Shown one piece after another: positions 1 to 12,726 of a stretch of DNA of 12,726 nucleotides. The DNA comes from Vibrio cholerae ATCC 14035. GTDB lineage: Bacteria; Pseudomonadota; Gammaproteobacteria; Enterobacterales; Vibrionaceae. The stretch spans positions 1 to 12,726 of the forward strand of contig NZ_JHXR01000038.1 of NCBI RefSeq assembly GCF_000621645.1, given 5' to 3'. The translations under genes were made by a program, and so were the position numbers. Every line of letters begins with the position of its first letter. Position 1 is the first letter of the stretch. Under the pieces are notes generated by a model. The model was given only the letters and a program-made list of their open reading frames with translations. It was not told the DNA's origin and made no database searches.

Positions 1-32
1 CGCGTTGACAGTCCCTCTTGAGGCGTTTGTTA
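1..32 (-). repeat. VCR attC site, partial (cut by the window edge)
   Basis: The sequence CGCGTTGACAGTCCCTCTTGAGGCGTTTGTTA is identical to the right-hand end of the full VCR copies. Confidence 0.9.
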
Positions 33-433
33 GCTTCGTAGCCTATTGTTTAACAATGGCTTTTAACACATTTGTTTGAAAGGCATTTTACGCAAAAGAA
101 TCAAGCAAGCACACGTCCAACGCCAAAAGCTGTGACGTTGGCTACCAAAACTTAAAACGATCAAGGTTAAGTTGGCCACGGTTAAGAGTCCGCGACAAAG
201 AAAGCAAGATCACAGCGATGATGCAGCATTTTGTGAAATCAAACTTTCCGAGCGGAACATCCAACAACGTTGAAGCATCGAGGCTTACTAGTTTTCAGCG
301 ACTTTGCACCCACTGAACTTTCAACACGTTCGACCAAATCAGCATCAAGAAAAGCTCAAAAGCCAAATTGTGCAATTTGAACGCTAAAATCTGAATTTTT
401 AGGACAATTAAACCGATTTTTGCTTTAAGAAGC
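33..433 (-). repeat. ORF-less cassette body, family A, copy 1
   Basis: It aligns over its whole length with 1390-1786 and 5378-5760. No ORF of 60 aa or more exists in any frame. The short ATG ORFs I traced by hand (7-32 aa) are not conserved between copies. A near-palindrome TATTGTTTAACAATG sits at 44-58. Confidence 0.8.
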
Positions 434-553
434 TAACGCCCGCTTAAGGGGCAGCCAACGCTATTACCAACTTACCGCATAACATCATCATCACAAAAAC
501 CAACGCATGGTAAAAATGCCACGCGTTGGCTGTCCCTCTTGAAGCGTTTGTTA
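434..553 (-). repeat. Divergent VCR-like attC site of the higBA cassette
   Basis: The ends are conserved (TAACGCCCGC...GCGTTTGTTA), but the central ~60 bp is unrelated to the VCR consensus. The inner stem shows paired changes: GGGGCAGCCAACGC / GCGTTGGCTGTCCC here versus GGGGCTGGCAACGC / GCGTTGACAGTCCC in the consensus. Confidence 0.85.
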
Positions 554-868
554 TGTACGTGCGCTTTGTTCCAGCGAAACAAACAACGGCTTTACAAACT
601 TTGCTTCTTCTTGATAACGATTTCTCGTATCCCAAAGATCAACTGCATGTTGAATGTTAAGCCAAAATTCTGGTGTGTTACCTAATGCCGCGGCTAACTT
701 GATTGCTACCGGAGCTGTTAACACACCACCATTAATTAAATTACTGACCGTATTTCTGTGTACGCCCATCGCTTCAGCGAGCGCTTTTGATGTGATGCCC
801 ATTGGTTCAAGAAATTCAACTTTTAACATTTCCCCAACGCTAACTGGACGACGTTTTGTCTTACGCAT
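551..868 (-). CDS. higA: HigA-type antitoxin (Xre/HTH DNA-binding protein)
   Basis: 105 aa. The HTH segment is ITSKALAEAMGVHRNTVSNLINGG. The gene starts 10 nt downstream of the toxin gene, giving the toxin-first order characteristic of higBA. The stop codon TAA (551-553) lies within the attC end. Confidence 0.85.
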   Translation of the reverse strand: MRKTKRRPVSVGEMLKVEFLEPMGITSKALAEAMGVHRNTVSNLINGGVLTAPVAIKLAAALGNTPEFWLNIQHAVDLWDTRNRYQEEAKFVKPLFVSLEQSART

Positions 869-878
869 AGTCGTTACC

Positions 879-1166
879 TCAATACTTATGTGGGTCTAAG
901 TAAGTATTTAGTGCAACACCATCAACCCACTGAAAAATCAAACGATACTGTTTGTTCACTCGAATTGAACACCAACCTTTAAGATTTCCTTCAAGATGTT
1001 CAAAACGATTACCCGGTGGAATTCTTAAGTCTGATTCAGCTTGAGCTGCATCTAAGATTTCCAGCTTCCGAAATAGAGCATTCTCTATGCTACTTGGAAT
1101 TAAACGATGTCGTTTATCATCCTCGTAAAACTGCTCTAACCACTTATCTTTAAATTCTAATGCCAT
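879..1166 (-). CDS. higB: HigB-type toxin (RelE/ParE-fold, plasmid maintenance system killer family)
   Basis: 95 aa from the ATG at 1166 (MALEFKDKWLEQFYEDD...IPPGNRFEHLEGNLKGWCSIRVNKQYRLIFQW). The ORF-track start at 1232 would lie inside the operator region. The gene is paired with a HigA-like HTH gene immediately downstream. Confidence 0.82.
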   Translation of the reverse strand: MALEFKDKWLEQFYEDDKRHRLIPSSIENALFRKLEILDAAQAESDLRIPPGNRFEHLEGNLKGWCSIRVNKQYRLIFQWVDGVALNTYLDPHKY

Positions 1167-1173
1167 TGCAACT

Positions 1174-1229
1174 TGCACTGTCTCATTGTGCATCCATAGG
1201 CAAAGACTAACGCATAATGACACTGTGCA
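1174..1229 (-). promoter_or_regulatory. Putative higBA operator: 14-bp inverted repeat flanking the promoter region
   Basis: The arms are TGCACTGTCTCATT (1174-1187) and AATGACACTGTGCA (1216-1229). They are reverse complements with 2 mismatches and lie directly upstream of the higB ATG. Confidence 0.5.
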
Positions 1230-1266
1230 CAAGTTTGATTTGTAGGAAGGATTTCAGAAAAGTACA

Positions 1267-1389
1267 TAACGCCCGCCTAAGGGGCTGGCAACGCATTAAC
1301 ACTAAACTCAACCTCAACAATCGAAACCACCGCGGCTCAATGGGACTGGAAACGCCACGCGTTGACAGTCCCGCTTGAGGCGTTTGTTA
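1267..1389 (-). repeat. VCR attC site
   Basis: The + strand reads TAACGCCCGCCTAAGGGGCTGGCAACGC...GCGTTGACAGTCCCGCTTGAGGCGTTTGTTA, the reverse complement of the canonical VCR. 123 bp. Confidence 0.95.
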
Positions 1390-1786
1390 GCTTCGTAGCC
1401 CATTGTTTAACAATGATTTTGAGAAAGCAATTTTACGCAAAAGCATCGAACAAACGCACGTCCAGCACCAAAAGCTGTGAAGTAAACAGCCAAAACTCAA
1501 AGCATTCAAGGTTAAGTTGGCCACGTTAAGAGTCCGTGACAAAGAAAACACTCTTTCAGCGATGATGCAGCCTTTGTGAAACCAAGCTTTCCGTTTGGAG
1601 CATCCAACAACATTGAAGCATCAAGGTTTGATGATTTTTAGCGGCTTTGAAACTGCTGAAGATTCCACACTTTCTACCAAATAAGCATCAGAAAGACTCG
1701 AAAGCCAAATTGTGAAACTTGAACACTAAAAGCTGAATTTTCAGGACAATTAAATCCAGACTTTGATAATTTTTGCTTCAAGAAGC
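1390..1786 (-). repeat. ORF-less cassette body, family A, copy 2
   Basis: Paralogous to 33-433 and 5378-5760. No ORF of 60 aa or more. A perfect palindrome CATTGTTTAACAATG sits at 1401-1415. Confidence 0.8.
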
Positions 1787-1908
1787 TAACGCCCGCCTAA
1801 GGGGCTGGCAACGCATAACACCAAACTCAAACACAACAACCATAACCACCACGGCTCATTGGGACTGGAAACGCTACGCGTTGACAGTCCCTCTTGAGGC
1901 GTTTGTTA
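1787..1908 (-). repeat. VCR attC site
   Basis: 122-bp copy of the VCR consensus with conserved inverted ends. Confidence 0.95.
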
Positions 1909-2422
1909 TGCTTAAACTTCAACACTTTACATTTGAACCAACTCAAGAATAACCCACTGAAATCATTCACCAAACTTCGACTTTCATTGAACTAGAACCG
2001 GCTCAACTTTTACCTATGAACAGACCAATGCAGGCTTTCATTTAGCAACTAGGCCAATGTGGAGACCCTCTCCGACAAACCAACTCACCACACATGGGCA
2101 CGATAACTCAATGAGGCAATCACACTGAAACTTACAGCGACAGACACATTGCCGTTTCATTAGGCAGCGAAAAACAATGCTCAATTGCCGACAGACTTTC
2201 AGCCTATAAGTAAAGGCACCAAACTGCTCAAAGCGACTTGAAAGAGCAAAACTCACCTCGCGCAGACTCAACAACCCAATGAGGCAATCACTCAGAAGTT
2301 ACAGCGCCAGACACATTGCCGCTTCGTTAGACAGCGGCGAACAATATTGAATTGCCGACAAAACTGAACGAAATGCCAAAGAGATCAAAAACCACAAACA
2401 ATTGATTTTAATAGATTAAGCA
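1909..2422 (-). repeat. Cassette body, family B, copy 1. Contains two copies of a ~97-bp internal element (2106-2202, 2274-2369).
   Basis: It aligns over its full length with 2545-3059. The only ORF (2038-2274, Cys-rich, TTG start, no SD) shows no coding-type conservation between the two copies. Confidence 0.8.
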
Positions 2423-2544
2423 TAACGCCCGCCTAAGGGGCTGGCAACGCATACCACTAAACTCAAACACAACAACTACAACCACCGCGGCTCAATGGGA
2501 CTGGAAACGCCACGCGTTGACAGTCCCTCTTGAGGCGTTTGTTA
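2423..2544 (-). repeat. VCR attC site
   Basis: 122-bp copy of the VCR consensus. Confidence 0.95.
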
Positions 2545-3059
2545 TGCTTAAGCTTCAACACTTTACATTTGAATCAAATCAATGATAACCAACTGAAATC
2601 ATTGGCCAAACTCCGAGTTTCCTTGAATTAGAACTGGCTCAACTTTTACCTATGAACTGACCAATGCAGGCTTTCATTTAGCGACTAGGCCAATGTGTAG
2701 ACCCTCTCCGACAAACCAACTCACCACACATTGGCGTGATAACTCAATGAGGCAATGGCGCTGAAACTTAAAGCGACAGACACATTGCCGTTTCATTAGG
2801 CAGCGCAAAACAATGCTCAATTGCCGATAGACTTTCAGCTTATAAGTAAAGGCGCCAAACTGGTCAAAGCGACTTGAGAGAGCCAAACTCACCTCGCGTG
2901 GACTCAAAAAACCAATGAGGCAATAACACAGAATTTACAGCGCCAGACACATTGCCGCTTCATTAGGCAGCGACAAACAATATTGAATTGCCGACAAAAC
3001 CAGAACGAAATGCCAAAGGAATCGACAATCACAACCTGCTGATTTTTATGGACTAAGCA
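2545..3059 (-). repeat. Cassette body, family B, copy 2. Internal element copies lie at 2742-2838 and 2910-3006.
   Basis: Paralogue of 1909-2422 with the same internal duplication. Confidence 0.8.
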
Positions 3060-3182
3060 TAACGCCCGCCTAAGGGGCTGGCAACGCACTACCACGAAAC
3101 TCAAACACAACAATCGTAACCACCGCAGCTCATTGGGACTGGAAACGCCACGCGTTGACAGTCCCTCTTGAGGCGTTTGTTA
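3060..3182 (-). repeat. VCR attC site
   Basis: 123-bp copy of the VCR consensus. Confidence 0.95.
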
Positions 3183-3201
3183 GGTATCTTGGATTTATAT
3201 T

Positions 3202-3774
3202 CTATATGTCATCGTCTAGTAACTTTTTCATTTCCTTTTTAATTGCAGAAAATAGAGGTTTAATTTCATCTTCTACATCAAAGTTGATATCTTTTTCTAA
3301 CTGTGAACTATCTAAAATCTTATCGCAAAGATCGTCAACCTTAACCTCAATATCATCAGGCAGAAATAACCGATTAACACGGAGAAAGTTAGACAGTTTT
3401 AATGTACTTTCATTTAGCTTATCAAAGTCACCATGTGAGCAGCTAGCATCGTAATAATGCCTTAAAAACATTATTGTATCTTGTAAATGAGCATGTAGAT
3501 CGGATATCACTTCAGAGCGTTTTCCATGTAACATGCTAAAACGCAGTTCCCTTTTAAATGTTGAATCTTTAAGAGCCGATTTGATGTTTTCAATCGCTGC
3601 TGTTTTCTCAATTTCAACTTTTGCTTTGTAAGACTCTAGCTTCAAGTCGTATTCATGTTTTATTGAGCTTTTAACTCTCTCTGTAATCCAAGTTTTTGAA
3701 AGCCAAACAATTACAGCAGAAGCCACACTACTAGCTGTTACTGAAGCTAAGATTGTTAAAATAATGTCGCTCAA
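3202..3774 (-). CDS. Hypothetical cassette protein, 190 aa: N-terminal transmembrane helix plus a charged, probably helical domain
   Basis: The long ORF runs back into the upstream VCR, so I trimmed it to the in-frame TTG at 3774, which is preceded by GGAGG with a 5-nt spacer. The N-terminus SDIILTILASVTASSVASAVIVWLSKTW is hydrophobic. The rest is K/E/D-rich. I recognise no family. Confidence 0.7.
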   Translation of the reverse strand: MSDIILTILASVTASSVASAVIVWLSKTWITERVKSSIKHEYDLKLESYKAKVEIEKTAAIENIKSALKDSTFKRELRFSMLHGKRSEVISDLHAHLQDTIMFLRHYYDASCSHGDFDKLNESTLKLSNFLRVNRLFLPDDIEVKVDDLCDKILDSSQLEKDINFDVEDEIKPLFSAIKKEMKKLLDDDI

Positions 3775-3792
3775 TGCCCCCTCCAAGATACC

Positions 3793-3914
3793 TAACGCCC
3801 GCCTAAGGGGCTGGCAACGCATACCACTAAACTCAAACACAACAACTGCAACCACCGCGGCTCAATGGGACTGGAAACGCCGCGCGTTGACAGTCCCTCT
3901 TGAGGCGTTTGTTA
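3793..3914 (-). repeat. VCR attC site
   Basis: 122-bp copy of the VCR consensus. Its GTTATAA end supplies the stop codon of the acetyltransferase. Confidence 0.95.
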
Positions 3915-4421
3915 TAAAGCGGACTCTACGTTAAGCGCTTTTTCTAACCACAACGAGCTGATGTACTGCCCATGTTTCTTGGCATATTCGTTGAAAATGC
4001 CGACTTCTCGGAAACCAAACCGTTTATGTAATGCTACTGATGCGTCATTTGGTAATGCAACACCCGACAATATACGATGGACGCCATAAGCACGAATGGA
4101 TGAAAACAGCTGAGTATAAAGCTTCGAACCTAAACCTTTCCCTTTAGCTTCTTGTGCCAGATAAACGCTCACCTCTACAGTGTCATCAAAAGCTGGTATT
4201 GCTCTGTACTTTTGGGAACATGCAAAACCTTGCAACACACCGTTTTCTACAGCCACATATATTTGATATTTGGCGGTTCTAGAAAACTGAGAGAACCATT
4301 CCTCACGATTTTCCAGAGTAAATGGAAATTCCTCAAAGCGTGCATTGGTTTGTTCAATATAAAAGTTAAAGATGTCGGTAATGCCCGCAATATCTTCAAA
4401 TTCACCTGTTCGAATTTCCAC
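3912..4421 (-). CDS. GNAT family N-acetyltransferase, phosphinothricin / methionine-sulfoximine acetyltransferase-like
   Basis: 169 aa. GTG start at 4421 preceded by AGAGGA with a 6-nt spacer. The acetyl-CoA loop is QEAKGKGLGSKL. VEVSVYL and NDASVALHKRFGFREVG match the PAT-type GNAT pattern as I recall it. Confidence 0.85.
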   Translation of the reverse strand: MEIRTGEFEDIAGITDIFNFYIEQTNARFEEFPFTLENREEWFSQFSRTAKYQIYVAVENGVLQGFACSQKYRAIPAFDDTVEVSVYLAQEAKGKGLGSKLYTQLFSSIRAYGVHRILSGVALPNDASVALHKRFGFREVGIFNEYAKKHGQYISSLWLEKALNVESAL

Positions 4422-4447
4422 AAAATGTCCTCTTTCTTCGAGCTTTA

Positions 4448-4570
4448 TAACGCCCGCCTAAGGGGCTGGCAACGCATTACCACTAAACTCAAACACAACA
4501 ACCGAAACCACCGCGGCTCAATGGGACTGGAAACGCCACGCGTTGACAGTCCCTCTTGAGGCGTTTGTTA
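4448..4570 (-). repeat. VCR attC site
   Basis: 123-bp copy of the VCR consensus. Confidence 0.95.
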
Positions 4571-4604
4571 GTTTGCTTTCGCCCAAATCGTGCGATTTAA
4601 TTAT

Positions 4605-4633
4605 TTTAAACACTTCGCATCATAAGCTATACT
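4605..4633 (+). promoter_or_regulatory. Candidate sigma70 promoter of the inverted TA cassette
   Basis: TTTAAA (4605-4610), a 17-bp spacer, then TATACT (4628-4633). The SD AAGGAG at 4650-4655 lies 7 nt before the ATG at 4663. Confidence 0.45.
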
Positions 4634-4662
4634 CTTTCAAACTTTGAGTAAGGAGCCTAGTT

Positions 4663-4905
4663 ATGCACACACTAACAGCAAATGATGCTAAACGAAATTT
4701 TGGTGAACTTCTTCTAAGCGCACAACGCGAACCTGTCATCATCAGCAAAAACAGTAAGAATACTGTCGTTGTCATGTCCATTAAGGACTTTGAAGAACTT
4801 GAAGCAATGAAACTCGATTATCTCAAACACTGCTTTGAGTCTGCTCAGAAAGACTTAGATAGTGGCAAAACCGTTGATGGTGCCACTTTTCTAAACACCC
4901 TTTGA
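4663..4905 (+). CDS. Phd/YefM family antitoxin
   Basis: 80 aa. MHTLTANDAKRNFGELLLSAQREPVIISKNSKNTVVVMSIKDFEELE matches the Phd/YefM N-terminal fold pattern. Strong SD. The toxin gene follows immediately. Confidence 0.85.
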   Translation: MHTLTANDAKRNFGELLLSAQREPVIISKNSKNTVVVMSIKDFEELEAMKLDYLKHCFESAQKDLDSGKTVDGATFLNTL

Positions 4906-4923
4906 TTGAGCGTTTACCTCAAT

Positions 4924-5241
4924 ATGCAAAATAAACAATATAAGCTCAGCCAATTAGCCCAAGAGCACTTACTCAAGATTAAACACTACACCATTGAAAA
5001 TTTCGCTGAAGCGCAGTGGCAAAAATATAAGTCGACCTTGCTTTCAGGTTTCCAAACTCTTGCGGATAACCCAGGACTAGGAAAAAGCTGTGAAGATATT
5101 TACCAAAATGGTTTTTACTTTCCAGTGGGGAAACACATGGCTTATTACACCAAAGAAGCAAACTTCATTCTCATTGTTGCGGTATTAGGGCAATCACAAC
5201 TGCCCCAAAAGCATCTCAAACAGTCACGCTTTGTTTCTTAG
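4924..5241 (+). CDS. parE: ParE family toxin (RelE/ParE superfamily)
   Basis: 105 aa from the ATG at 4924 (MQNKQYKLSQLAQEHLLKIKHYTIENFAEAQWQKY...FYFPVGKHMAYYTKEANFILIVAVLGQSQ). An alternative TTG at 4906 abuts the antitoxin stop, so the start is uncertain by 18 nt. Confidence 0.8.
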   Translation: MQNKQYKLSQLAQEHLLKIKHYTIENFAEAQWQKYKSTLLSGFQTLADNPGLGKSCEDIYQNGFYFPVGKHMAYYTKEANFILIVAVLGQSQLPQKHLKQSRFVS

Positions 5242-5256
5242 TCTCCGATTGCAAAC

Positions 5257-5377
5257 TAACGCCCGCCTAAGGGGCTGACAACGCATTACACAAAACTCAA
5301 ACACAACAACCGAAACCACTGCGGCTCAATGGGACTGGAAACGCCACGCGTTGGCAGTCCCTTTGAGGCGTTTGTTA
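5257..5377 (-). repeat. VCR attC site of the first cassette, slightly degenerate
   Basis: 121 bp. Differences from the consensus are GGGGCTGACAACGC, GCGTTGGCAGTCCC and a 1-bp deletion (CCCTTTGAGG). Confidence 0.92.
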
Positions 5378-5760
5378 GTTTCGTAGCCTATTGTTTAACA
5401 ATGACTTTTTAAACTCATTTTCTTGAAAGTCATTTTACGCAAAAGCATCACGCAAACACACGCCCAACGCCAAAAGCTGTGAAGTTGGCTGCCAAAACGT
5501 TAAGAGTCCGCACAAAGAAAGCCAGATCACAGCGATGATTCAACCTTTTATGAAACCAAACTGATCAAGTTGAACGTCCGACAACATTGAAGCATCAAAG
5601 CTTGTTGGTTATCCGCGGTTTTGAAACCGCTGAACTTTCAACGCTTTCTACCAAATCAACATCAGGAAAAACCCCAAAACCAAATTGTGCAGCTTGAACG
5701 ATAAAGGCTGAATTTTCAGAACCTTGTGCGTGAATTTTTGATGATTTTCCTGAGAGAAAC
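5378..5760 (-). repeat. ORF-less cassette body, family A, copy 3 (first cassette after attIA)
   Basis: Paralogous to 33-433 and 1390-1786. No ORF of 60 aa or more. Near-palindrome TATTGTTTAACAATG at 5389-5403. Confidence 0.8.
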
Positions 5761-5830
5761 TAACGCTTTCTAGACAGCTTCTTACCTTTCCAACAGGTAG
5801 GCTACCGCTATCTAATTAATAGACCACTGG
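5761..5830 (-). other. attIA primary recombination site. The crossover GTTAG is read on the minus strand at 5764-5760.
   Basis: This is the last GTTRRRY-type motif at the junction between the cassette array and the integrase-proximal unique sequence. The outer boundary is approximate. Confidence 0.65.
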
Positions 5831-5834
5831 GTGC

Positions 5835-5878
5835 ATACTACCATAACAACCTTCTAAATCAGTATGTTGAGCATCACA
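5835..5878 (-). promoter_or_regulatory. Candidate cassette promoter Pc: extended -10 (TGgTAGTAT) with an upstream CRP-like box
   Basis: On the minus strand, TGTGATGCTCAACATA (5878-5863) is followed by 22 nt and then TAGTAT (5840-5835) preceded by TGG. That places the CRP-like box centre near -42, a class II geometry. From memory, the V. cholerae Pc is CRP-dependent. Confidence 0.4.
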
Positions 5879-5925
5879 CCATTCAAAAATCTCAGCTTAT
5901 AGATTGCTGATGTCTGTATAGCCTC

Positions 5926-5966
5926 TTGACATAAAAACAACCAACAAATACTGTACAAATAACCAG
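5926..5966 (+). promoter_or_regulatory. PintIA promoter with an overlapping LexA (SOS) box
   Basis: TTGACA (5926-5931), a 17-bp spacer, then TACTGT (5949-5954). The LexA box CTGTACAAATAACCAG (5951-5966) compares with the consensus CTGT-N8-ACAG. Confidence 0.75.
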
Positions 5967-5988
5967 TTAAATATTCAGTGAGAACTAT

Positions 5989-6951
5989 ATGAAATCCCAG
6001 TTTTTGTTAAGTGTTCGCGAATTTATGCAAACTCGATACTATGCAAAAAAAACCATAGAAGCTTACCTTCATTGGATCACTCGTTACATCCATTTTCATA
6101 ATAAAAAGCACCCTAGCTTAATGGGAGATAAAGAGGTCGAAGAATTTTTAACCTACTTAGCCGTGCAAGGTAAAGTGGCCACAAAGACTCAATCACTAGC
6201 CTTGAACTCACTCAGTTTTCTATACAAAGAAATTCTAAAAACACCCCTTTCTCTTGAGATCCGCTTTCAACGCTCGCAACTAGAACGAAAGTTACCGGTT
6301 GTACTGACTAGAGATGAGATTCGACGTTTACTTGAAATTGTCGATCCTAAGCATCAACTTCCCATCAAGTTACTCTACGGTTCGGGGTTAAGGTTGATGG
6401 AGTGTATGCGCTTGAGAGTCCAAGATATCGATTTTGATTATGGTGCAATCAGAATCTGGCAAGGTAAGGGGGGTAAAAATCGCACGGTCACGTTAGCAAA
6501 AGAACTCTATCCGCATCTTAAAGAGCAAATTGCGCTAGCAAAACGCTATTACGATCGAGACTTGCACCAAAAAAACTACGGCGGGGTTTGGCTGCCCACA
6601 GCCTTAAAAGAAAAGTATCCAAATGCACCTTATGAGTTTCGTTGGCACTATCTTTTTCCGTCTTTTCAGTTATCTCTAGATCCGGAATCCGATGTGATGC
6701 GCCGCCATCATATGAACGAAACAGTACTACAAAAAGCGGTGAGAAGATCGGCTCAAGAAGCGGGGATTGAAAAGACCGTGACTTGCCACACTCTCAGACA
6801 TTCATTTGCAACCCATTTGCTTGAAGTGGGGGCTGATATACGTACCGTACAAGAGCAACTAGGACATACCGATGTAAAAACGACACAGATTTACACTCAT
6901 GTTCTTGATAGAGGTGCAAGCGGTGTTTTAAGCCCATTATCCCGTCTTTAG
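5989..6951 (+). CDS. intIA: Integron integrase IntIA (IntI4), tyrosine recombinase
   Basis: 320 aa. The tyrosine-recombinase signature is present: GLRLMECMRLR, HTLRHSFATHLL and TQIYTHV. An integron-specific extra segment lies around YPNAPYEFRWHYLFPS. The gene is divergent from the VCR cassette array. Confidence 0.96.
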   Translation: MKSQFLLSVREFMQTRYYAKKTIEAYLHWITRYIHFHNKKHPSLMGDKEVEEFLTYLAVQGKVATKTQSLALNSLSFLYKEILKTPLSLEIRFQRSQLERKLPVVLTRDEIRRLLEIVDPKHQLPIKLLYGSGLRLMECMRLRVQDIDFDYGAIRIWQGKGGKNRTVTLAKELYPHLKEQIALAKRYYDRDLHQKNYGGVWLPTALKEKYPNAPYEFRWHYLFPSFQLSLDPESDVMRRHHMNETVLQKAVRRSAQEAGIEKTVTCHTLRHSFATHLLEVGADIRTVQEQLGHTDVKTTQIYTHVLDRGASGVLSPLSRL

Positions 6952-7725: not shown

Positions 7726-8277
7726 TTACTTCTTTTTAGGGGCTAACACCATGATCATCTGGCGTGCTTCAATTTTGGTCGGGAAAGACTCAACCACTGC
7801 GAATTCGTCAGTGTCCTCTTTCAGTCGATTCAAAACGTCTACACCGATGTCTTGGTGAGCCATCTCTCGGCCACGGAAGCGAATAGTTACTTTCACTTTG
7901 TTGCCTTCTTCTAGGAAACGGATCAGGTTGCGTAGTTTTACCTGATAATCTCCCACATCAGTCCCAGGACGGAATTTGAGTTCCTTAATCTGGATCTGCT
8001 TTTGCTTCTTCTTCTGCTCTTTTGTAGCCTTGCTCTTCTCAAAGAGGAACTTGCCATAGTCCATCACACGACAGACTGGTGGCTCGGCGTTAGGGCTGAT
8101 CTCAACGAGATCCAAACCAGATTCTTCTGCTGTAGCCAGTGCTTCTTGGATCGAAACGATACCTACAGACTCACCGTCTGCGCCAGTTAAACGAACTTCA
8201 CGAACGCCACGAATTTCACCGTTTAAACGGTGCTGGTTTTGCTTGACCGGAACTTGGCCACGTCTTCCGCCTTTAAT
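7726..8277 (-). CDS. infC: Translation initiation factor IF-3, AUU start codon
   Basis: Hand translation upstream of the ORF-track start gives ATT AAA GGC GGA AGA CGT... = (M)[76 protein letters not shown]. This is collinear with E. coli IF3 at 183 aa. The ATT lies 3 nt after the thrS stop. Confidence 0.93.
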
Positions 8278-8280
8278 AGT

Positions 8281-10209
8281 TTATTCCTCCAGATTAAGCT
8301 TACGGCTTGCAATCTCAGCTTGGATATGTGCAATAAAATCATCCAATTTAAATTTACCAAGATCTTTACCTTTACGTGTACGTACTGCGATTTCGCCAGC
8401 TTCCATCTCTTGGTCGCCACAAACCAACATGTACGGAACACGCTTCAAAGTGTGTTCGCGGATTTTAAAGCCTATTTTCTCATTTCTCAAGTCTGCTTTT
8501 GCTCGAATGCCACATTTTTGTAGCTTTTGAGCGACTTCATGAGCATAGTCGGCTTGTTTATCCGTGATATTTACAACAACAGCCTGCTCTGGCGCCAACC
8601 AAGTTGGGAAGAATCCTGCGTATTCTTCAATCAGAATACCGATAAAGCGTTCAAGTGAACCCAAAATCGCACGGTGGATCATCACCGGAATTAAGCGTTC
8701 ATTGCTTTCACCAACGTAAGTGGCACCTAAACGTGTAGGCAAGTTGAAATCGAGCTGCACTGTACCACATTGCCACGCACGATCTAAACAGTCGTAGAGT
8801 GTAAACTCAATTTTCGGACCATAGAACGCACCTTCGCCTTCCTGAATTTCAAATGGAATGTCCATTGCCTTCAGAGAATCGATCAGCGCTTGTTCTGATT
8901 TGTCCCAAATTTCATCGCTACCCACGCGCTTTTCAGGGCGAGTAGACAACTTCACCACGATATTTTGGAAGCCAAAAGTCGTGTAAGTGTCATACACCAT
9001 CTTGATGCACGAAGTCACTTCTTGTTGAATTTGATCTTCAGTACAGAAGATATGCGCGTCATCTTGAGTAAAGCCACGCACACGCATGATACCGTGTAGT
9101 GAACCTGATGGCTCGTTACGATGACAGGAACCAAACTCAGCCATGCGCAATGGCAGATCACGGTAAGATTTCAAACCTTGGTTGAAAATCTGGATGTGAC
9201 CCGGACAGTTCATCGGCTTGATCGCGTATTCTCGGTTTTCTGATGAAGTCGTGAACATCGCATCTGCGTATTTGTCCCAGTGACCTGAACGTTCCCAAAG
9301 TACGCGATCCATCATCAATGGACCTTTTACTTCTTGGTAACCGTATTCGTTCAATTTATGACGAATAAAAATTTCCAGCTCACGGAAGACTGACCAACCG
9401 TTGTGGTGCCAGAACACCATGCCCGGTGCTTCTTGCTGCATATGGAACAGATCAAGTTGCTTACCGATTTTACGATGGTCACGTTTTGCAGCTTCTTCAA
9501 GGCGAGTTAAATGCGCTTGCAGAGCTTTCTTATCATGGAACGCTGTACCGTAGATACGTTGCAGCATTTTGTTATCGCTGTTACCACGCCAGTATGCACC
9601 CGCAATGTTCAGCAATTTGAAGTTTTGACAAAAGCCCATGTGTGGTACGTGTGGACCACGGCACATGTCAATGTATTCTTCGTGATGGTAAAGACCAGGG
9701 CGATCATCACGCGCCACGTTTTCATCAAGAATTTCCATTTTGTAGCTTTCGCCACGCGATTCAAAGGTATCGCGCGCTTCCTGCCAGCTCACTTTCTTTT
9801 TGACAACCGCGTATTTGGTTTTCGCTAACTCAACCATGCGAGCTTCGATTTTCTCAAGATCTTCTTGAGAGAGAGACTGCTCGAGATCGATGTCGTAGTA
9901 AAAACCGCTGTCAATGGTTGGACCGATCGCCATTTTCGCATTCGGGTAAAGTTGCTTAAGCGCGTGGCCAAGCAAGTGCGCGCATGAGTGACGCACGATT
10001 TCCAAACCATCTACTTCATCTTTCGTGGTGATGATTTCTAGGCTGGCATCGTGTTCAATCAGATCGCAAGCATCAACGCGCGCACCATTCACACGACCTG
10101 CAATAGTTGCTTTCGCAAGACCAGGACCGATAGATTGGGCAACTTCGAGAGTAGATACTGGGTTGTCAAAATGACGCTGACTACCGTCAGGAAGAGTAAT
10201 AATAGGCAT
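8281..10209 (-). CDS. thrS: Threonine--tRNA ligase
   Basis: 642 aa, [19 protein letters not shown]...[10 protein letters not shown]...MNCPGH...[11 protein letters not shown]..., collinear with E. coli ThrRS. Confidence 0.98.
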
Positions 10210-10226
10210 GTATTATCCTTACAGTG

Positions 10227-10247
10227 GTGTTGCACACCAAGCAACAC
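10227..10247 (-). promoter_or_regulatory. thrS leader hairpin resembling the tRNA-Thr anticodon arm (putative ThrRS translational operator)
   Basis: The minus-strand RNA reads GUGUUGC-UUGGUGU-GCAACAC: a 7-bp stem and a 7-nt loop with U at the position 33 equivalent and GGU at the anticodon position. It ends 6 nt upstream of the SD AAGGA (10216-10220). Confidence 0.55.
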
Positions 10248-10411
10248 TTGTGTGAAAAAATACGCTTTAAATTCAATGCTTTATGAATTTTGCGTAACGA
10301 TTTTTGAAGATTTGGTACAAATTTTGGTACAAATACGGATGCACCAGCTTAAGTACTTGGATTGCATTCTAACGAATCGACATGAAAGCGCAATCAATAT
10401 CACAAAAGCGC

Positions 10412-10443
10412 AGAAACAAAATACGCCCACTTAAAGTAGGCGT
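10412..10443 (-). terminator. Rho-independent terminator downstream of the immunity gene
   Basis: On the minus strand, ACGCCTACT-TTA-AGTGGGCGT (9-bp stem with one mismatch) is followed by ATTTTGTTTCT. It lies 35 nt after the stop at 10478. Confidence 0.6.
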
Positions 10444-10477: not shown

Positions 10478-10828
10478 TCAATTCATAGGTTCTAAGGTTT
10501 CACCATTCGTTAAGGTGATTTCTTCACCTAAATAGCTAGCAAAATCTCTTATCTCAATTTTGCTTAGTGTGTTCCCTTTGTACTCAAATAGGCCTTCATG
10601 GCAAATATTATCCGGAGAGCCACACGTTATACGAATCGTATAGATAGGATGTTTATTCTCTACAATACTGAGACCCGTTGCTGTGGGCTCTGGGAACCAA
10701 ATCATTTGTCCAATAATCTGAGCATTTGGTACCGAATATTCAAATTTAAAAAGAAACGTAGCCAAGAGCACTACGGCAAGACAGGTTGATACCAGTAAGA
10801 TTGCAAACCACTTTATGATTTTTTTCAT
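10478..10828 (-). CDS. tsiH: Membrane-anchored or periplasmic small protein: T6SS immunity protein (TsiH-like)
   Basis: 116 aa. The N-terminal hydrophobic anchor is MKKIIKWFAILLVSTCLAVVLLATFLF. The ATG lies 1 nt after the effector stop. Its position directly after an effector is typical of an immunity gene. From memory it matches VCA0286. Confidence 0.75.
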   Translation of the reverse strand: MKKIIKWFAILLVSTCLAVVLLATFLFKFEYSVPNAQIIGQMIWFPEPTATGLSIVENKHPIYTIRITCGSPDNICHEGLFEYKGNTLSKIEIRDFASYLGEEITLTNGETLEPMN

Positions 10829-10829
10829 A

Positions 10830-11501
10830 TCACTCAGATACCGTTAATTTGTTGGTCTTATAGTCATAATCTAAATCAATTTCACTTAACTGAAACTGTT
10901 CAATATACGCGCTTGGTACAACAACAGGAGGTTTCCAAGCCGGGTCTAACCCCATTGCATCAGCTAAATCTATGACAAATGTCATGCAGTTATGGCTATC
11001 CAAGTCATAAGGTATCTTATCAGGGCTATTATTAAGATCCATTTTTCCCCTTAACCATGAATCTGCTTCAGAGAAAAACTTTCCTCTTAATACCACTCCC
11101 GAAATTCTCCCCTCCTGTCCAGAACGTAGGGACACTTCTTTAAGAACCTTCAGTAACGAGCTTTCAGTAATTAGACCACTTTTTATAGTTACATTTGATA
11201 CCCCAACCTTCCTCACATTTCCTGGGATATCCGATTTAGGGTTCTTGTAACGGCCATACTCATAATAGCGAGTAACACCTGTTTCACCATTAATCAAAAT
11301 AACTCCAGCGTGACCAAGGTAGGGGGCCTTCACTGCAGGAGTTTTTATTTTTACACCCCATAACTCAAAAGATTGTTCATCTGCGACTGAGATTAGGTAG
11401 TCAGGAAATACTACAGGTATCAAAAAATCGTCATTACCTGAAAGAAATATCTCATATGGAGTTGTATCGGCTACTGGAGTTGATGATACAGTGTCAGTCA
11501 T
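10830..11501 (-). CDS. tseH: T6SS effector, papain-like (NlpC/P60-type) hydrolase (TseH-like)
   Basis: 223 aa with no signal peptide. A candidate catalytic His sits in YLGHAGVIL (H64) and a candidate Cys in DSHNCMTFV (C172). The ATG overlaps the PAAR gene stop (TAATG). From memory it matches VCA0285. Confidence 0.78.
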   Translation of the reverse strand: MTDTVSSTPVADTTPYEIFLSGNDDFLIPVVFPDYLISVADEQSFELWGVKIKTPAVKAPYLGHAGVILINGETGVTRYYEYGRYKNPKSDIPGNVRKVGVSNVTIKSGLITESSLLKVLKEVSLRSGQEGRISGVVLRGKFFSEADSWLRGKMDLNNSPDKIPYDLDSHNCMTFVIDLADAMGLDPAWKPPVVVPSAYIEQFQLSEIDLDYDYKTNKLTVSE

Positions 11502-12031
11502 TAGCTATCCCTCAATAACCAATTTTTTGTTTTGTTTGGCTTCACTGATACTTTTTTCATCTTGTCGCCTTTAGCTAAACCTTTTAGTTCACCATTAGCA
11601 TCAGTCTTCATCACTAGCTCTGAACCATCATCAAACAAGCACAAGACCTCCATAAATGGGCATATGGAACCATTGGTATCTTTTACCTTAACGTTGATGT
11701 CATACAGTGTTTTACTCAAAATTGAACTTGGTGCAGGAGTATGCGAATCGCCTATATTGACTGATGAACTGCCAATAGTTACACCACCACAAGAAATACT
11801 ACCACCTGTGATAGCTGCGGGTTTTCCATTGATCATAACGGTTGAAGACCCAGACGAAATGGATCTCCCATGAGGTGGATGTTTAGGTTTGGAATGAGGT
11901 TCTAATGGATCCCCTAATCTAGCTGCAGGCATAAAGTCAAATTTAACATTAGGCGAGCCACTGGTAATCTTTGTTGGCGGAAACCCATCATGATCGGTGC
12001 CGATATCACCGACAATAACTGCCTTTACCAT
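11501..12031 (-). CDS. PAAR-domain T6SS spike-tip protein with a ~75-aa C-terminal extension
   Basis: 176 aa. It contains a literal PAAR motif (FMPAARLGDP), a second PAAR-like repeat (NGKPAAITGG) and a Gly/Ser-rich beta-repeat region. The C-terminal region LYDINVKVKDTNGS...NWLLRDS resembles nothing I recognise. From memory it matches VCA0284 (PAAR2). Confidence 0.88.
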   Translation of the reverse strand: MVKAVIVGDIGTDHDGFPPTKITSGSPNVKFDFMPAARLGDPLEPHSKPKHPPHGRSISSGSSTVMINGKPAAITGGSISCGGVTIGSSSVNIGDSHTPAPSSILSKTLYDINVKVKDTNGSICPFMEVLCLFDDGSELVMKTDANGELKGLAKGDKMKKVSVKPNKTKNWLLRDS

Positions 12032-12131
12032 AGATAAACTTCTACTGTTTATTGAGATGGCTCATTTCTGTACAAAAAACATACCCAATTGATATTTGAT
12101 ATGTAGCTTCCAGAATTTGGCTTATATGCAA

Positions 12132-12161
12132 CTAAAAATTGCCTAGCTAGGCAATTTTTAG
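12132..12161. repeat. Perfect 30-bp palindrome upstream of the PAAR operon
   Basis: CTAAAAATTGCCTAG|CTAGGCAATTTTTAG. A third copy of the half-site core (AATTGCCTAA) lies at 12178-12187. Confidence 0.85.
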
Positions 12162-12385
12162 CCTAAATCGAGCAACGAATTGCCTAACTTGCAACCCCGT
12201 TCACCAGCTAATTGATTTTGTGACGTCTGCAAACGGTGAATCATACGTTGATAAAACTACTTTAAGGTACAAAGGTCTAGAATCATTAGTTCGTAAGCTA
12301 TTCTCACAATTGAGTATACCTAAAGAGTTGAACATAATGCATCACATGGCGACTCTTTCCGAACTTATCGGGTAAGGCTTCAATT

Positions 12386-12420
12386 TATAGCTACACCCTT
12401 ATAAATTGGGTGTAGCTATA
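12386..12420. repeat. 13-bp perfect inverted repeat (stem-loop)
   Basis: TATAGCTACACCC-TTATAAATT-GGGTGTAGCTATA, about 130 nt downstream of the VNTR gene stop. There is no flanking T-run, so I do not call it a canonical terminator. Confidence 0.8.
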
Positions 12421-12551
12421 CAGCATTCAGTAACTTCAAAACTATTGCGCACAATTCTCTTTGAACTGTTCATGATAATCAATGAAACTCATAACCTTAG
12501 GTTATGAGATTCAATATCTAACAAAATAAAAACGTCACACCAAATACATAT

Positions 12552-12726
<175 letters not shown>

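Follow-up and report, generated by a model that had tools for sequence, protein, structure and literature searches.

A paar2-tseH-tsiH operon at the right-hand side of a pandemic-type Aux3 island in Vibrio cholerae, and a predicted VgrG-like adaptor domain on its PAAR protein

Background

The paar2-tseH-tsiH module of V. cholerae is already known and well studied as part of Aux3, whose pandemic form (VCA0281-VCA0286) was described by Altindis et al. (2015) and Santoriello et al. (2020). Altindis et al. (2015) established T6SS-dependent secretion, toxicity and immunity for the exact TseH protein encoded by the DNA analyzed here, showed experimentally that VCA0286 (TsiH) protects against TseH, and noted a TTR domain in PAAR-2. 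The arrangement in which Aux3 is flanked by gcvT and thrS was described by Santoriello et al. (2020), who found the P4-type integrase of the pandemic form to be truncated by IS5. Dependence on RpoN was reported as 47-, 35- and 19-fold for VCA0284-86 (Dong et al. 2012), and Hersch et al. (2021) have the PAAR2 tail recruiting TseH.

Three further systems are close to this module: the PAAR protein VCA0105 (PAAR1, PDB 4JIV); the VgrG spikes that carry a TTR domain, represented by enteroaggregative E. coli (EAEC) VgrG1-Tle1 (6SJL) and Pseudomonas aeruginosa VgrG2b (6H56); and orphan PAAR-effector-immunity cassettes with Tae4, Ntox44 or DUF6402/DUF6201 proteins. Here the locus in a 12,726-nt stretch of V. 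cholerae DNA (the window) is compared with these systems. Gene identities, folds, homologies, the att duplication, base composition and synteny in other genera come from the present analysis, and T6SS-dependent secretion, periplasmic toxicity, protection by TsiH, PAAR2-dependent loading and RpoN dependence are taken from the papers.

Results and Discussion

Identity and genomic context of the module

Three minus-strand ORFs were found at 11501-12031, 10830-11501 and 10478-10828, where the first-pass annotation of this sequence had placed them. The first is paar2 (VCA0284 equivalent), whose 176-aa product has a PAAR spike-tip domain and a C-terminal extension according to Pfam, PDB and AF2 comparisons. 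The second, tseH (VCA0285 equivalent), encodes a 223-aa NlpC/P60-type papain-like cysteine hydrolase effector, identified from Pfam, PDB and the literature. The third, tsiH (VCA0286 equivalent), encodes a 116-aa immunity protein with an N-terminal membrane anchor, identified from hydropathy and homologues. The gene junctions are as tight as annotated: the paar2 stop codon (TAA, 11503-11501) and the tseH ATG (11501-11499) share one A in the TAATG at 11503-11499, and a gap of 1 nt separates tseH from tsiH (TGA-T-ATG, 10832-10826).

The operon probably ends at a minus-strand terminator-like hairpin with a T-run (10423-10443), 35 nt past the tsiH stop. A second minus-strand hairpin of this kind (12488-12508) separates paar2 from the Aux3 gene upstream, the VCA0283 equivalent, which is cut by the window edge and present with its 3' end (minus strand, 12552-12726, stop codon at 12554-12552). 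This is the VNTR gene that had been described as adjoining the module; its hexamer repeat was located at 12678-12726 (TTCTGG x8.2, which is ACCAGA in the coding direction) and is translated into repeated PE dipeptides. The complete gene product has 409 aa in locus L010 and 382-443 aa among strains.

The window was 100% identical over 10,446 nt to L010, a V. cholerae small-chromosome record, and 99.5% identical to other V. cholerae small-chromosome loci, in which the gene order is gcvT, int, IS5 transposase, VNTR gene, PAAR, TseH, small gene and thrS. In the V. cholerae records that are 100% identical to the window, pandemic-type Aux3 sits between gcvT and thrS. Its other end, in L010 and other V. 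cholerae loci, carries a gene for a 383-385 aa Phage_integrase protein followed by a DDE_Tnp_1 transposase. The gene set, gene order, thrS-side insertion and att repeats are all like those of the published pandemic form, and no difference from it was found; the window ends inside the VNTR gene and therefore does not include the integrase, the IS5 transposase or attL.

This identity of the locus, together with the identity of TseH to PDB 6V98 and the Pfam match of PAAR2 given below, bears out the proposal that the module is Aux3 (PAAR2, TseH, TsiH), and also the remark that it was probably not new, since Aux3 is already published. We put the probability that the region is the right-hand 2.4 kb of a pandemic-type Aux3 island, and that its three minus-strand genes are the VCA0284-0286 equivalents forming the paar2-tseH-tsiH operon, at about 0.96; nothing contradicts the Aux3 identification.

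Where the island ends relative to thrS had been left as a question, and is largely answered by an att region of 123 nt (10234-10356, strandless), recognized from direct repeats and alignment, which is duplicated at the gcvT-int side of the island. Two repeats were distinguished at this end, repeat 1 at 10292-10356 and repeat 2 at 10225-10261. The second is attR in the assignment of Santoriello et al. (2020), which we follow, and is situated 16-52 nt upstream of the thrS start codon (ATG, 10209); a crossover within repeat 1 or within repeat 2 is compatible with the data. The 123-nt duplication is present at both island ends in locus L002 (direct repeats D2/D5/D6). In the Aux3-naive loci L022 and L024-28 the gcvT-thrS intergenic alignment places gcvT directly beside thrS with a single att copy, and the att spacer is polymorphic among naive strains, L022 resembling the attR side and L024 the attL side. 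The module has a G+C content of 0.396 against 0.457 for thrS, and its genes have a GC3 of 0.32-0.35 against 0.44; the remark, made by eye, that the region is more AT-rich than thrS therefore holds.

The effector TseH and the immunity protein TsiH

TseH matched the Pfam family TseH (PF25218) with 104.7 bits (cut-off 27, E = 6.6e-30), and its residues 21-223 are 100% identical to PDB 6V98, a 'cysteine hydrolase'. The motif LGHAGV supplies His64, and SHNCMTF supplies His170 and Cys172; the first-pass annotation had taken these as contexts typical of papain-like or NlpC/P60 enzymes, a reading supported by the Pfam and 6V98 matches and by conservation. Among six homologues of 42-74% identity H64, C172, E81, E113 and E201 are invariant and H170 is not conserved. 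H64A is a catalytic mutant of TseH (Tang et al. 2021), and a 2024 structural survey lists Glu, His and Cys as essential.

It is rather unlikely that TseH is something other than a peptidoglycan endopeptidase, its papain-like site acting on a different substrate in the envelope (a lipoprotein, amide or ester, for example). [quoted passage not shown] 2021, among other sources), and this strong dependence of toxicity on prey species and Mg2+/Ca2+ extends to envelope-stress pathways. However, TseH has an NlpC/P60-type fold (2024 structural survey, among other sources), cells are lysed by periplasmic but not cytoplasmic TseH, and purified TseH lyses permeabilised E. coli (Altindis et al. 2015).

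The most hydrophobic 19-residue stretch of TsiH, aa 9-27, has a Kyte-Doolittle value of 2.69, compared with maxima of 0.94 and 1.15 in the other two proteins. This anchor, and the correspondence to published TsiH, agree with the earlier description of gene 3 as a small immunity protein anchored at its N-terminus. No Pfam model matched TsiH. Its family is very narrow: relatives occupy only 6 clusters among 1.84 billion representatives, all 90-123 aa long. TsiH homologues follow TseH homologues in four other loci of other genera, with E-values of 6e-34, 2e-9, 5e-9 and 0.2.

Two other readings of the TsiH N-terminus were considered and rejected. A lipoprotein is not indicated, since the residues around Cys16 (L-V-S-T-C) do not form a lipobox and hydrophobicity continues beyond this cysteine. 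The alternative start found in some annotations, which gives 75 aa, is unlikely given the length of the relatives, which align from residue 1-2 in five of the six clusters (residue 10 in the other) and keep the hydrophobic N-terminus.

The PAAR2 cone and its C-terminal extension

The PAAR domain proper, delimited by the PDB match and alignments, comprises aa 1-95 (minus strand, 11747-12031). PAAR2 matched the Pfam model PAAR_motif (PF05488) at aa 19-86 with 58.1 bits (cut-off 27, E = 1e-15), the profile on which the assignment of gene 1 had been made to depend, and the V. cholerae PAAR crystal structure 4JIV_D at aa 4-94 (E = 2e-37). Its AF2 model (pLDDT 89.6) aligned with 4JIV_D in Foldseek with a TM of 0.96, an rmsd of 0.7 and E = 3.8e-12. 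The "literal PAAR motifs" that had been described are one literal PAAR (aa 35-38) and one PAAI (aa 71-74), so the claim stands for the first and not for the second. Across 44 relatives C81 is invariant, and H14, H46 and H54 reach a conservation of 90% or more; the literature gives these residues a role as metal ligands. The close homologue crystallised in 4JIV reportedly binds the tip of the VgrG trimer. VCA0105 has the same PAAR cone, with 66% identity, an rmsd of 0.7 A in the model and conserved His/Cys positions, but is a bare cone of 93-96 aa without a cargo-binding extension.

The extension of PAAR2 covers aa 96-176 (minus strand, 11504-11746) and thus measures about 82 aa beyond the PAAR fold (aa 95/96-176) rather than the 75 or so estimated earlier. 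In the AF2 model it consists of a linker from aa 96 to about 108, a five-strand transthyretin-like beta-sandwich at aa 110-165 approximately (strands 110-115, 128-133, 138-142, 148-155 and 161-165; pLDDT about 94), and a low-confidence tail ending in NWLLRDS. A Pfam search with the extension of the window protein alone returned nothing significant (Big_1, E = 0.087; MG4, E = 0.18), and the homology emerged only when a family profile was compared with PDB sequences. A profile of 24 extensions matched the TTR domains of the VgrG proteins in 6SJL (aa 780-833, E = 2.5e-8) and 6H56 (aa 11-65, E = 1.5e-7), against E of about 0.8 for transthyretins. The best-probability Foldseek match of the extension was also 6sjl_A (0.97), with an E-value that is not significant, and for this reason the case for TTR homology rests on the sequence profile.

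Judged by that profile, the extension is a predicted homologue of the effector-binding TTR domain of VgrG spikes. It had earlier been called unexplained, which no longer fits. It shares with EAEC VgrG1-Tle1 and P. aeruginosa VgrG2b a predicted small, homologous beta-sandwich with the motif FxL.D..G.P..N..Y.....G....G.TD..G.T, a place at the C-terminal end of a spike component and an adjoining cognate effector gene; the difference is that the Aux3 domain hangs on the PAAR tip and not on VgrG. It is followed in Aux3 by a short W-[LF]-[LI] tail, which was compared among PAAR-TTR relatives only. The earlier guess that the extension is a cargo adaptor agrees with the VgrG homology and with Santoriello et al. 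(2020) and Hersch et al. (2021), where TseH is stated to be loaded onto PAAR2 through its tail.

Cargo co-variation across genera

The PAAR domain stays 66-77% identical across relatives irrespective of cargo, whereas the extension drops to 16-47%. Short PAAR-TTR genes ending in W-[LF]-[LI] were all followed by TseH-like and TsiH-like genes, and relatives with other tails by genes for Ntox44, Tae4, DUF6402 or unknown effectors. The L037 protein is an example of a Tae4-type PAAR. The orphan cassettes resemble Aux3 in their three-gene layout, tight junctions and related PAAR with a TTR-like extension, and differ in carrying another effector and immunity pair with a correspondingly divergent extension and tail. 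The extension and the terminal W-[LF]-[LI] motif thus appear to track the downstream effector family across genera, with a putative role for the motif, and direct binding of TseH by the PAAR2 extension is supported indirectly by this co-variation with effector type.

A mere spacer or solubility domain, with TseH loaded inside the Hcp tube or directly on VgrG, is an improbable account of the extension. Altindis et al. (2015) noted that TseH, at 24 kDa, could be accommodated by the Hcp pore, an interaction with PAAR-2 not being established then, and a 12-residue stub of the tail suffices as linker for Cre fusions (Hersch et al. 2021). Against this, the extension is a folded domain with predicted homology to the VgrG domain that is bound to its effector in 6SJL, the extension and its tail motif, unlike the PAAR cone, co-vary with the family of the effector encoded downstream, and the later papers place TseH loading on the tail.

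The region upstream of paar2

A pattern search upstream of paar2 revealed a candidate enhancer array of the bEBP/VasH type (minus strand, 12132-12184) composed of GGCWA-N4-TTGCY dyads, two of them exact (12171-12184 and 12150-12163) and the third, imperfect, within a 30-bp perfect palindrome (12132-12161). With an N5 spacer the dyad search gave nothing relevant, whereas the N4 spacer did match. The same array occurs at -165 to -110 upstream of the PAAR genes of loci L029, L037, L050, L084, L045 and L108. Between the array and paar2 lies a candidate sigma-54-like -24/-12 element, TGGGTATGTTTTTTGT (GG-N10-GT; minus strand, 12072-12087), 41-56 nt upstream of the paar2 ATG. Its -12 element is GT, not GC. 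In alignments its counterparts in L029, L037 and L084, at an equal distance, are canonical TGGAAT-N5-TTGCT sites. The canonical GG-N10-GC is absent upstream of paar2, a search for TGGCAC-N5-TTGCW with up to 3 mismatches gave 57 matches against 63 expected, none of them convincing upstream of paar2, and a sigma-70 scan detected no minus-strand promoter-like site there. The published RpoN motif is located inside the paar2 ORF.

From sequence comparison the promoter and enhancer upstream of paar2 are putative assignments, and the dyad array with the sigma-54-like site would be an architecture common to V. cholerae and Desulfovibrionaceae cassettes, the dyads alone occurring also in Enterovibrio. 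A tentative reading, which we regard as possible rather than probable, is that PAAR-TTR cassettes including Aux3 are self-contained 'plug-in' weapon modules in both cargo choice and regulation. Cargo choice would be written in the variable TTR domain and the short terminal motif, W-[LF]-[LI] being a TseH-specific docking signal. As to regulation, every cassette would come with an enhancer and a promoter of its own (three GGCAA-N4-TTGCC dyads at about -165 to -110 and a sigma-54 -24/-12 site at about -57), and the real V. cholerae Aux3 promoter would be the GG-N10-GT site at 12087-12072 and not the published motif in the ORF.

Proposed mode of action

The N-terminal cone of PAAR2 would cap the VgrG spike of the type VI secretion system, while its transthyretin-like domain and tail would hold TseH as cargo. 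On firing, TseH would be delivered into the periplasm of a neighbouring cell, where its Cys-His(-Glu) active site would attack the cell envelope; TsiH, anchored in the inner membrane and facing the periplasm, would protect kin cells. Translational coupling is predicted for the three genes, and a strong dependence on RpoN has been reported for them. A P2-like prophage that integrated immediately upstream of thrS would have brought in the island, and of this prophage pandemic strains would retain a truncated, poorly excising remnant.

In environmental-type loci (L005, L012 and L016-18) the three genes directly follow P2-like gpU, gpX and gpD, PAAR proteins also cap phage spikes (4KU0, 9F4B, 9VYI and 6P1Z are among the structural matches), and several related cassettes adjoin phage or recombinase genes (L032, L037 and L038). 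That the module is itself a phage part, with PAAR as the spike tip of a P2-like prophage, TseH as a tail-delivered lysin and TsiH as a superinfection-immunity factor, is nevertheless very improbable: TseH was found through T6SS-dependent secretion in strains whose prophage remnant has no tail genes (Altindis et al. 2015, Santoriello et al. 2020), the operon shares its RpoN dependence with other T6SS auxiliary clusters (Dong et al. 2012), the closest solved PAAR relative is the T6SS protein VCA0105 (66% identity in the aligned model, against 24-28% for phage tips), the extension is a predicted homologue of T6SS VgrG adaptor domains, and a terminator-like hairpin and about 520 nt lie between the operon and the upstream genes.

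Conclusions

Among T6SS effector clusters Aux3 alone is specific to pandemic V. cholerae, and it is a model for the fixation of a prophage-borne weapon in a pathogen. As this pandemic role is already published, the present analysis adds no discovery on the importance of the module. Its additions are modest: an independent, tool-based confirmation of the PAAR2 extension as an apparent homologue of the TTR adaptor domains of VgrG; a survey across genera in which extension and tail appear to track the effector family; and a candidate enhancer and promoter architecture, which would correct a published RpoN-site assignment. They could guide the engineering of PAAR2-based protein-delivery tags, and may help to explain the co-regulation of Aux3 with the main T6SS cluster. 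If the plug-in reading is true, the shared enhancer and promoter architecture would mean that a cassette landing in a new host is wired at once into that host's T6SS activator.

The paar2-tseH-tsiH operon belongs to the Aux3 cluster

The interval 10478-12031 carries the three minus-strand genes placed there by the first-pass annotation, and the ORF listing gives paar2 at 11501-12031 (176 aa), tseH at 10830-11501 (223 aa) and tsiH at 10478-10828 (116 aa). Both junctions that it described were read in the sequence: TAATG (11503-11499), in which one base is common to the paar2 stop and the tseH start, and TGA-T-ATG (10832-10826), which separates tseH and tsiH by 1 nt. The three-gene operon is bracketed by terminator-like hairpins located 3' of the VNTR gene (12508-12488) and 3' of tsiH (10443-10423). 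The impression that the module is AT-richer than thrS was borne out by G+C content (39.6% versus 45.7%) and GC3 (32-35% versus 44%).

Pfam searches assigned the product of the first gene to PAAR_motif, as had been predicted, and that of the second to the TseH family, while no Pfam match was found for the third. Residues 21-223 of the second product are 100% identical to PDB 6V98, the residue range cited in the literature for the V. cholerae TseH crystal structure, and residues 4-94 of the first matched the V. cholerae PAAR structure 4JIV (E = 2e-37). Across 10.4 kb the window shows 100% identity with one small-chromosome record of V. cholerae (L010), and its identity with many other V. cholerae records is about 99.5%. 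The gene order in these records is gcvT, integrase, IS5 transposase, VNTR gene, PAAR, TseH, small gene, thrS, infC, rpmI, rplT and integron integrase. This arrangement corresponds exactly to the Aux3 cluster (VCA0281-VCA0286) described by Santoriello et al. 2020. The observation is thus confirmed and its Aux3 interpretation (PAAR2, TseH and TsiH) is supported. Altindis et al. 2015 defined the TseH/VCA0286 effector-immunity pair, reporting that the effector is secreted in a T6SS-dependent manner and is toxic only in the periplasm, and that VCA0286 rescues. The module was rightly suspected not to be new, Aux3 being known in detail with respect to genetics, structure, mobility and engineering use.

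The residues expected of TseH were found, with His64 within LGHAGV and both His170 and Cys172 within SHNCMTF. Residues 9-27 of TsiH are strongly hydrophobic, in keeping with the suggested membrane anchor. The TsiH family is very small: a search of 1.84 billion representatives yielded 6 clusters. Since the homologues are 90-123 aa long and 5 of 6 align from residue 1-2, the 116-aa start is favoured over the 75-aa start of some genome annotations. Public records disagree on the 10478-12031 DNA (L001, L004, L009, L015, L016-18): some omit paar2 entirely, and several give a tsiH of 75 aa, from Met42 and devoid of the anchor. A 51-aa ORF antisense within the paar2 upstream region (12220-12375, plus strand) has no Pfam match, is uncalled in all annotated loci and is probably spurious.

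The PAAR2 extension and its relation to cargo

PAAR2 has a single literal PAAR (aa 35-38), where more than one had been claimed, and one PAAI (aa 71-74). The structure predicted from a 44-sequence alignment was confident (mean pLDDT 89.6). In this model the PAAR cone (aa 1-95; TM 0.96 to 4JIV) is followed by a low-confidence linker, a predicted five-strand beta-sandwich (aa 110-165) and a floppy tail. When 24 extensions were combined into a profile, it hit the C-terminal transthyretin-like (TTR) domain of the VgrG spike protein from EAEC (6SJL aa 780-833, E = 2.5e-8), a structure solved together with the Tle1 effector, and likewise that of VgrG2b from P. aeruginosa (6H56, E = 1.5e-7). Transthyretins proper gave only a weak echo, and structure searches agreed in direction with TTR, not being significant alone. 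The extension had been called unexplained; in fact Altindis et al. 2015 already named it a transthyretin domain and possible adaptor, and later literature describes loading of TseH on PAAR2 via the C-terminal tail, so that the question is essentially closed in the literature. The guess that it is a cargo adaptor agrees with that work, and our homology test likewise points to a TTR adaptor.

Genes downstream of related PAAR-TTR genes were surveyed in other genomes. W-[LF]-[LI] tails were found in Vibrio anguillarum, V. ruber, Salinivibrio, Halodesulfovibrio and several metagenomic contigs. All surveyed genes with such tails were followed by a TseH-family gene and then by one whose product, about 120 aa long, has a hydrophobic N-terminus and is recognisably TsiH-like by BLASTP in 3 of the 4 compared. 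PAAR-TTR genes with other tails preceded Ntox44, Tae4, DUF6402/DUF6201 or unannotated effectors. Cone identity was 66-77% among all surveyed relatives, and extension identity was 23-47% in TseH-linked proteins versus 16-23% in the others. A conserved cone with an extension that varies with the cargo is what a cargo-specific adaptor would predict; this is supporting evidence and not proof, because simple co-inheritance within a clade predicts the same pattern.

Related PAAR-effector-immunity cassettes (L032, L035, L036, L037, L038) often adjoin phage tail-fibre, lysozyme, CI-repressor, integrase or serine-recombinase genes, which suggests that such cassettes, like Aux3, are commonly carried by prophages or other mobile elements.

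The Aux3 end and the flanking genes

The first-pass annotation had also asked where the island ends relative to thrS. In the full-length locus L002 the two ends of Aux3 each carry a copy of a duplicated segment of about 123-130 nt, and both ends were aligned with the Aux3-free gcvT-thrS intergenic regions of two naive strains (L022, L024). Element-specific DNA runs from tsiH through position 10357, followed by the duplicated block (10356-10234, with weaker similarity to 10225) and, below 10225, by purely chromosomal sequence down to position 10209, the thrS ATG. Within the block lie repeat 1 (10356-10292) and repeat 2, the attR (10261-10225), of Santoriello et al. 2020, which places the end of Aux3 16-52 nt upstream of the start codon of thrS. 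Since naive strains are polymorphic between the repeats, this alignment does not separate them and either could carry the crossover. Two tandem copies of a 12-nt unit, TTTGGTACAAAT, lie inside repeat 1 (10311-10334), and similar copies, ATTTGTACCAAAT, are found directly upstream of the Aux3 integrase gene (positions listed in the full-length locus L002: 4917-4932, 5168-5194 and 11177-11192); these units may be sites bound by the integrase (arm-type) or by an accessory factor.

Upstream of the module, the window edge cuts a gene that carries an array of ACCAGA hexamers encoding PE repeats (12678-12726). The copy number of the array varies among strains (homologous gene in L001-L023), the product ranging from 382 to 443 aa with no informative Pfam match. 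We take this gene to be VCA0283, one of the loci typed by MLVA in V. cholerae. An inverted repeat with perfect 13-nt arms and a 9-nt loop (12386-12420) sits exactly where similarity to one environmental Aux3 type (L012, L016-18) stops (12425); that type has another gene, of 293 aa, where the VNTR gene would be. The stretch 12386-12425 may mark a boundary between modules or a site of recombination. The chromosomal integron starts in the left half of the window (1-6951), with the integrase gene at 5989-6951 (plus strand) and cassettes that encode, among others, a HigB/HigA-like pair (551-1232), a 217-aa protein of unknown function (3202-3855), a GNAT acetyltransferase (3912-4421) and a Phd/ParE-like pair (4663-5241). 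The repeated recombination sites of the cassettes can be recognised by the translated string ARLRGWQRI, which recurs in several spurious ORFs. The infC gene (7726-8280) is 129 aa from TTG in the ORF list and 129, 141, 162 or 183 aa in public calls, consistent with the unusual non-ATG start for which it is known.

A candidate regulatory region upstream of paar2

Dong and Mekalanos 2012 reported that RpoN induces VCA0284-86 by 47-, 35- and 19-fold, and gave CGGCACCGATCATGA as the RpoN motif. This motif maps to 12002-11988 (minus strand), inside paar2 codons 10-15, and therefore cannot drive full-length PAAR2. It also lacks the -12 GC and is unlikely to be the promoter of the paar2 operon. Upstream of paar2 there are two exact copies of the dyad GGCWA-N4-TTGCY (12171-12184 and 12150-12163) and an imperfect third inside a 30-bp perfect palindrome (12132-12161). 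Among the first 38 loci the dyad occurred upstream of PAAR genes only, and in a further 80 PAAR loci the 400 nt preceding the PAAR gene showed an enrichment of about 8-fold. GGCAA-N4-TTGCC dyads about 20 nt apart are conserved in position upstream of PAAR genes in the window (12132-12184) and in L029 (3338-3393), L037 (3336-3391), L050, L084, L045 and L108.

Desulfovibrionaceae and Halodesulfovibrio cassettes have three dyads each at the same distance (-165 to -110), and 3 of 4 (L029, L037, L084) have a canonical sigma-54 site, TGGAAT-N5-TTGCT, at about -57, where the fourth (L050) shows no more than a GG-N10-GC element in which A replaces the preceding T. Enterovibrio cassettes have one or two dyads at -165 to -110, and no sigma-54 site was detected beside them. 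In a divergent Vibrio MAG the dyad positions are kept with altered bases. The aligned V. cholerae position (12087-12072) reads TGGGTATGTTTTTTGT, a GG-N10-GT element that differs from the invariant GC by a single base. From these alignments we propose that the dyads and TGGGTATGTTTTTTGT form a candidate enhancer-plus-promoter region of paar2; the array shared by Vibrio, Enterovibrio and Desulfovibrionaceae looks like candidate enhancer-binding-protein sites. As far as these small, phylogenetically non-independent samples suggest, what this locus would add to Aux3 is the association of tail motif with cargo and a conserved enhancer architecture.
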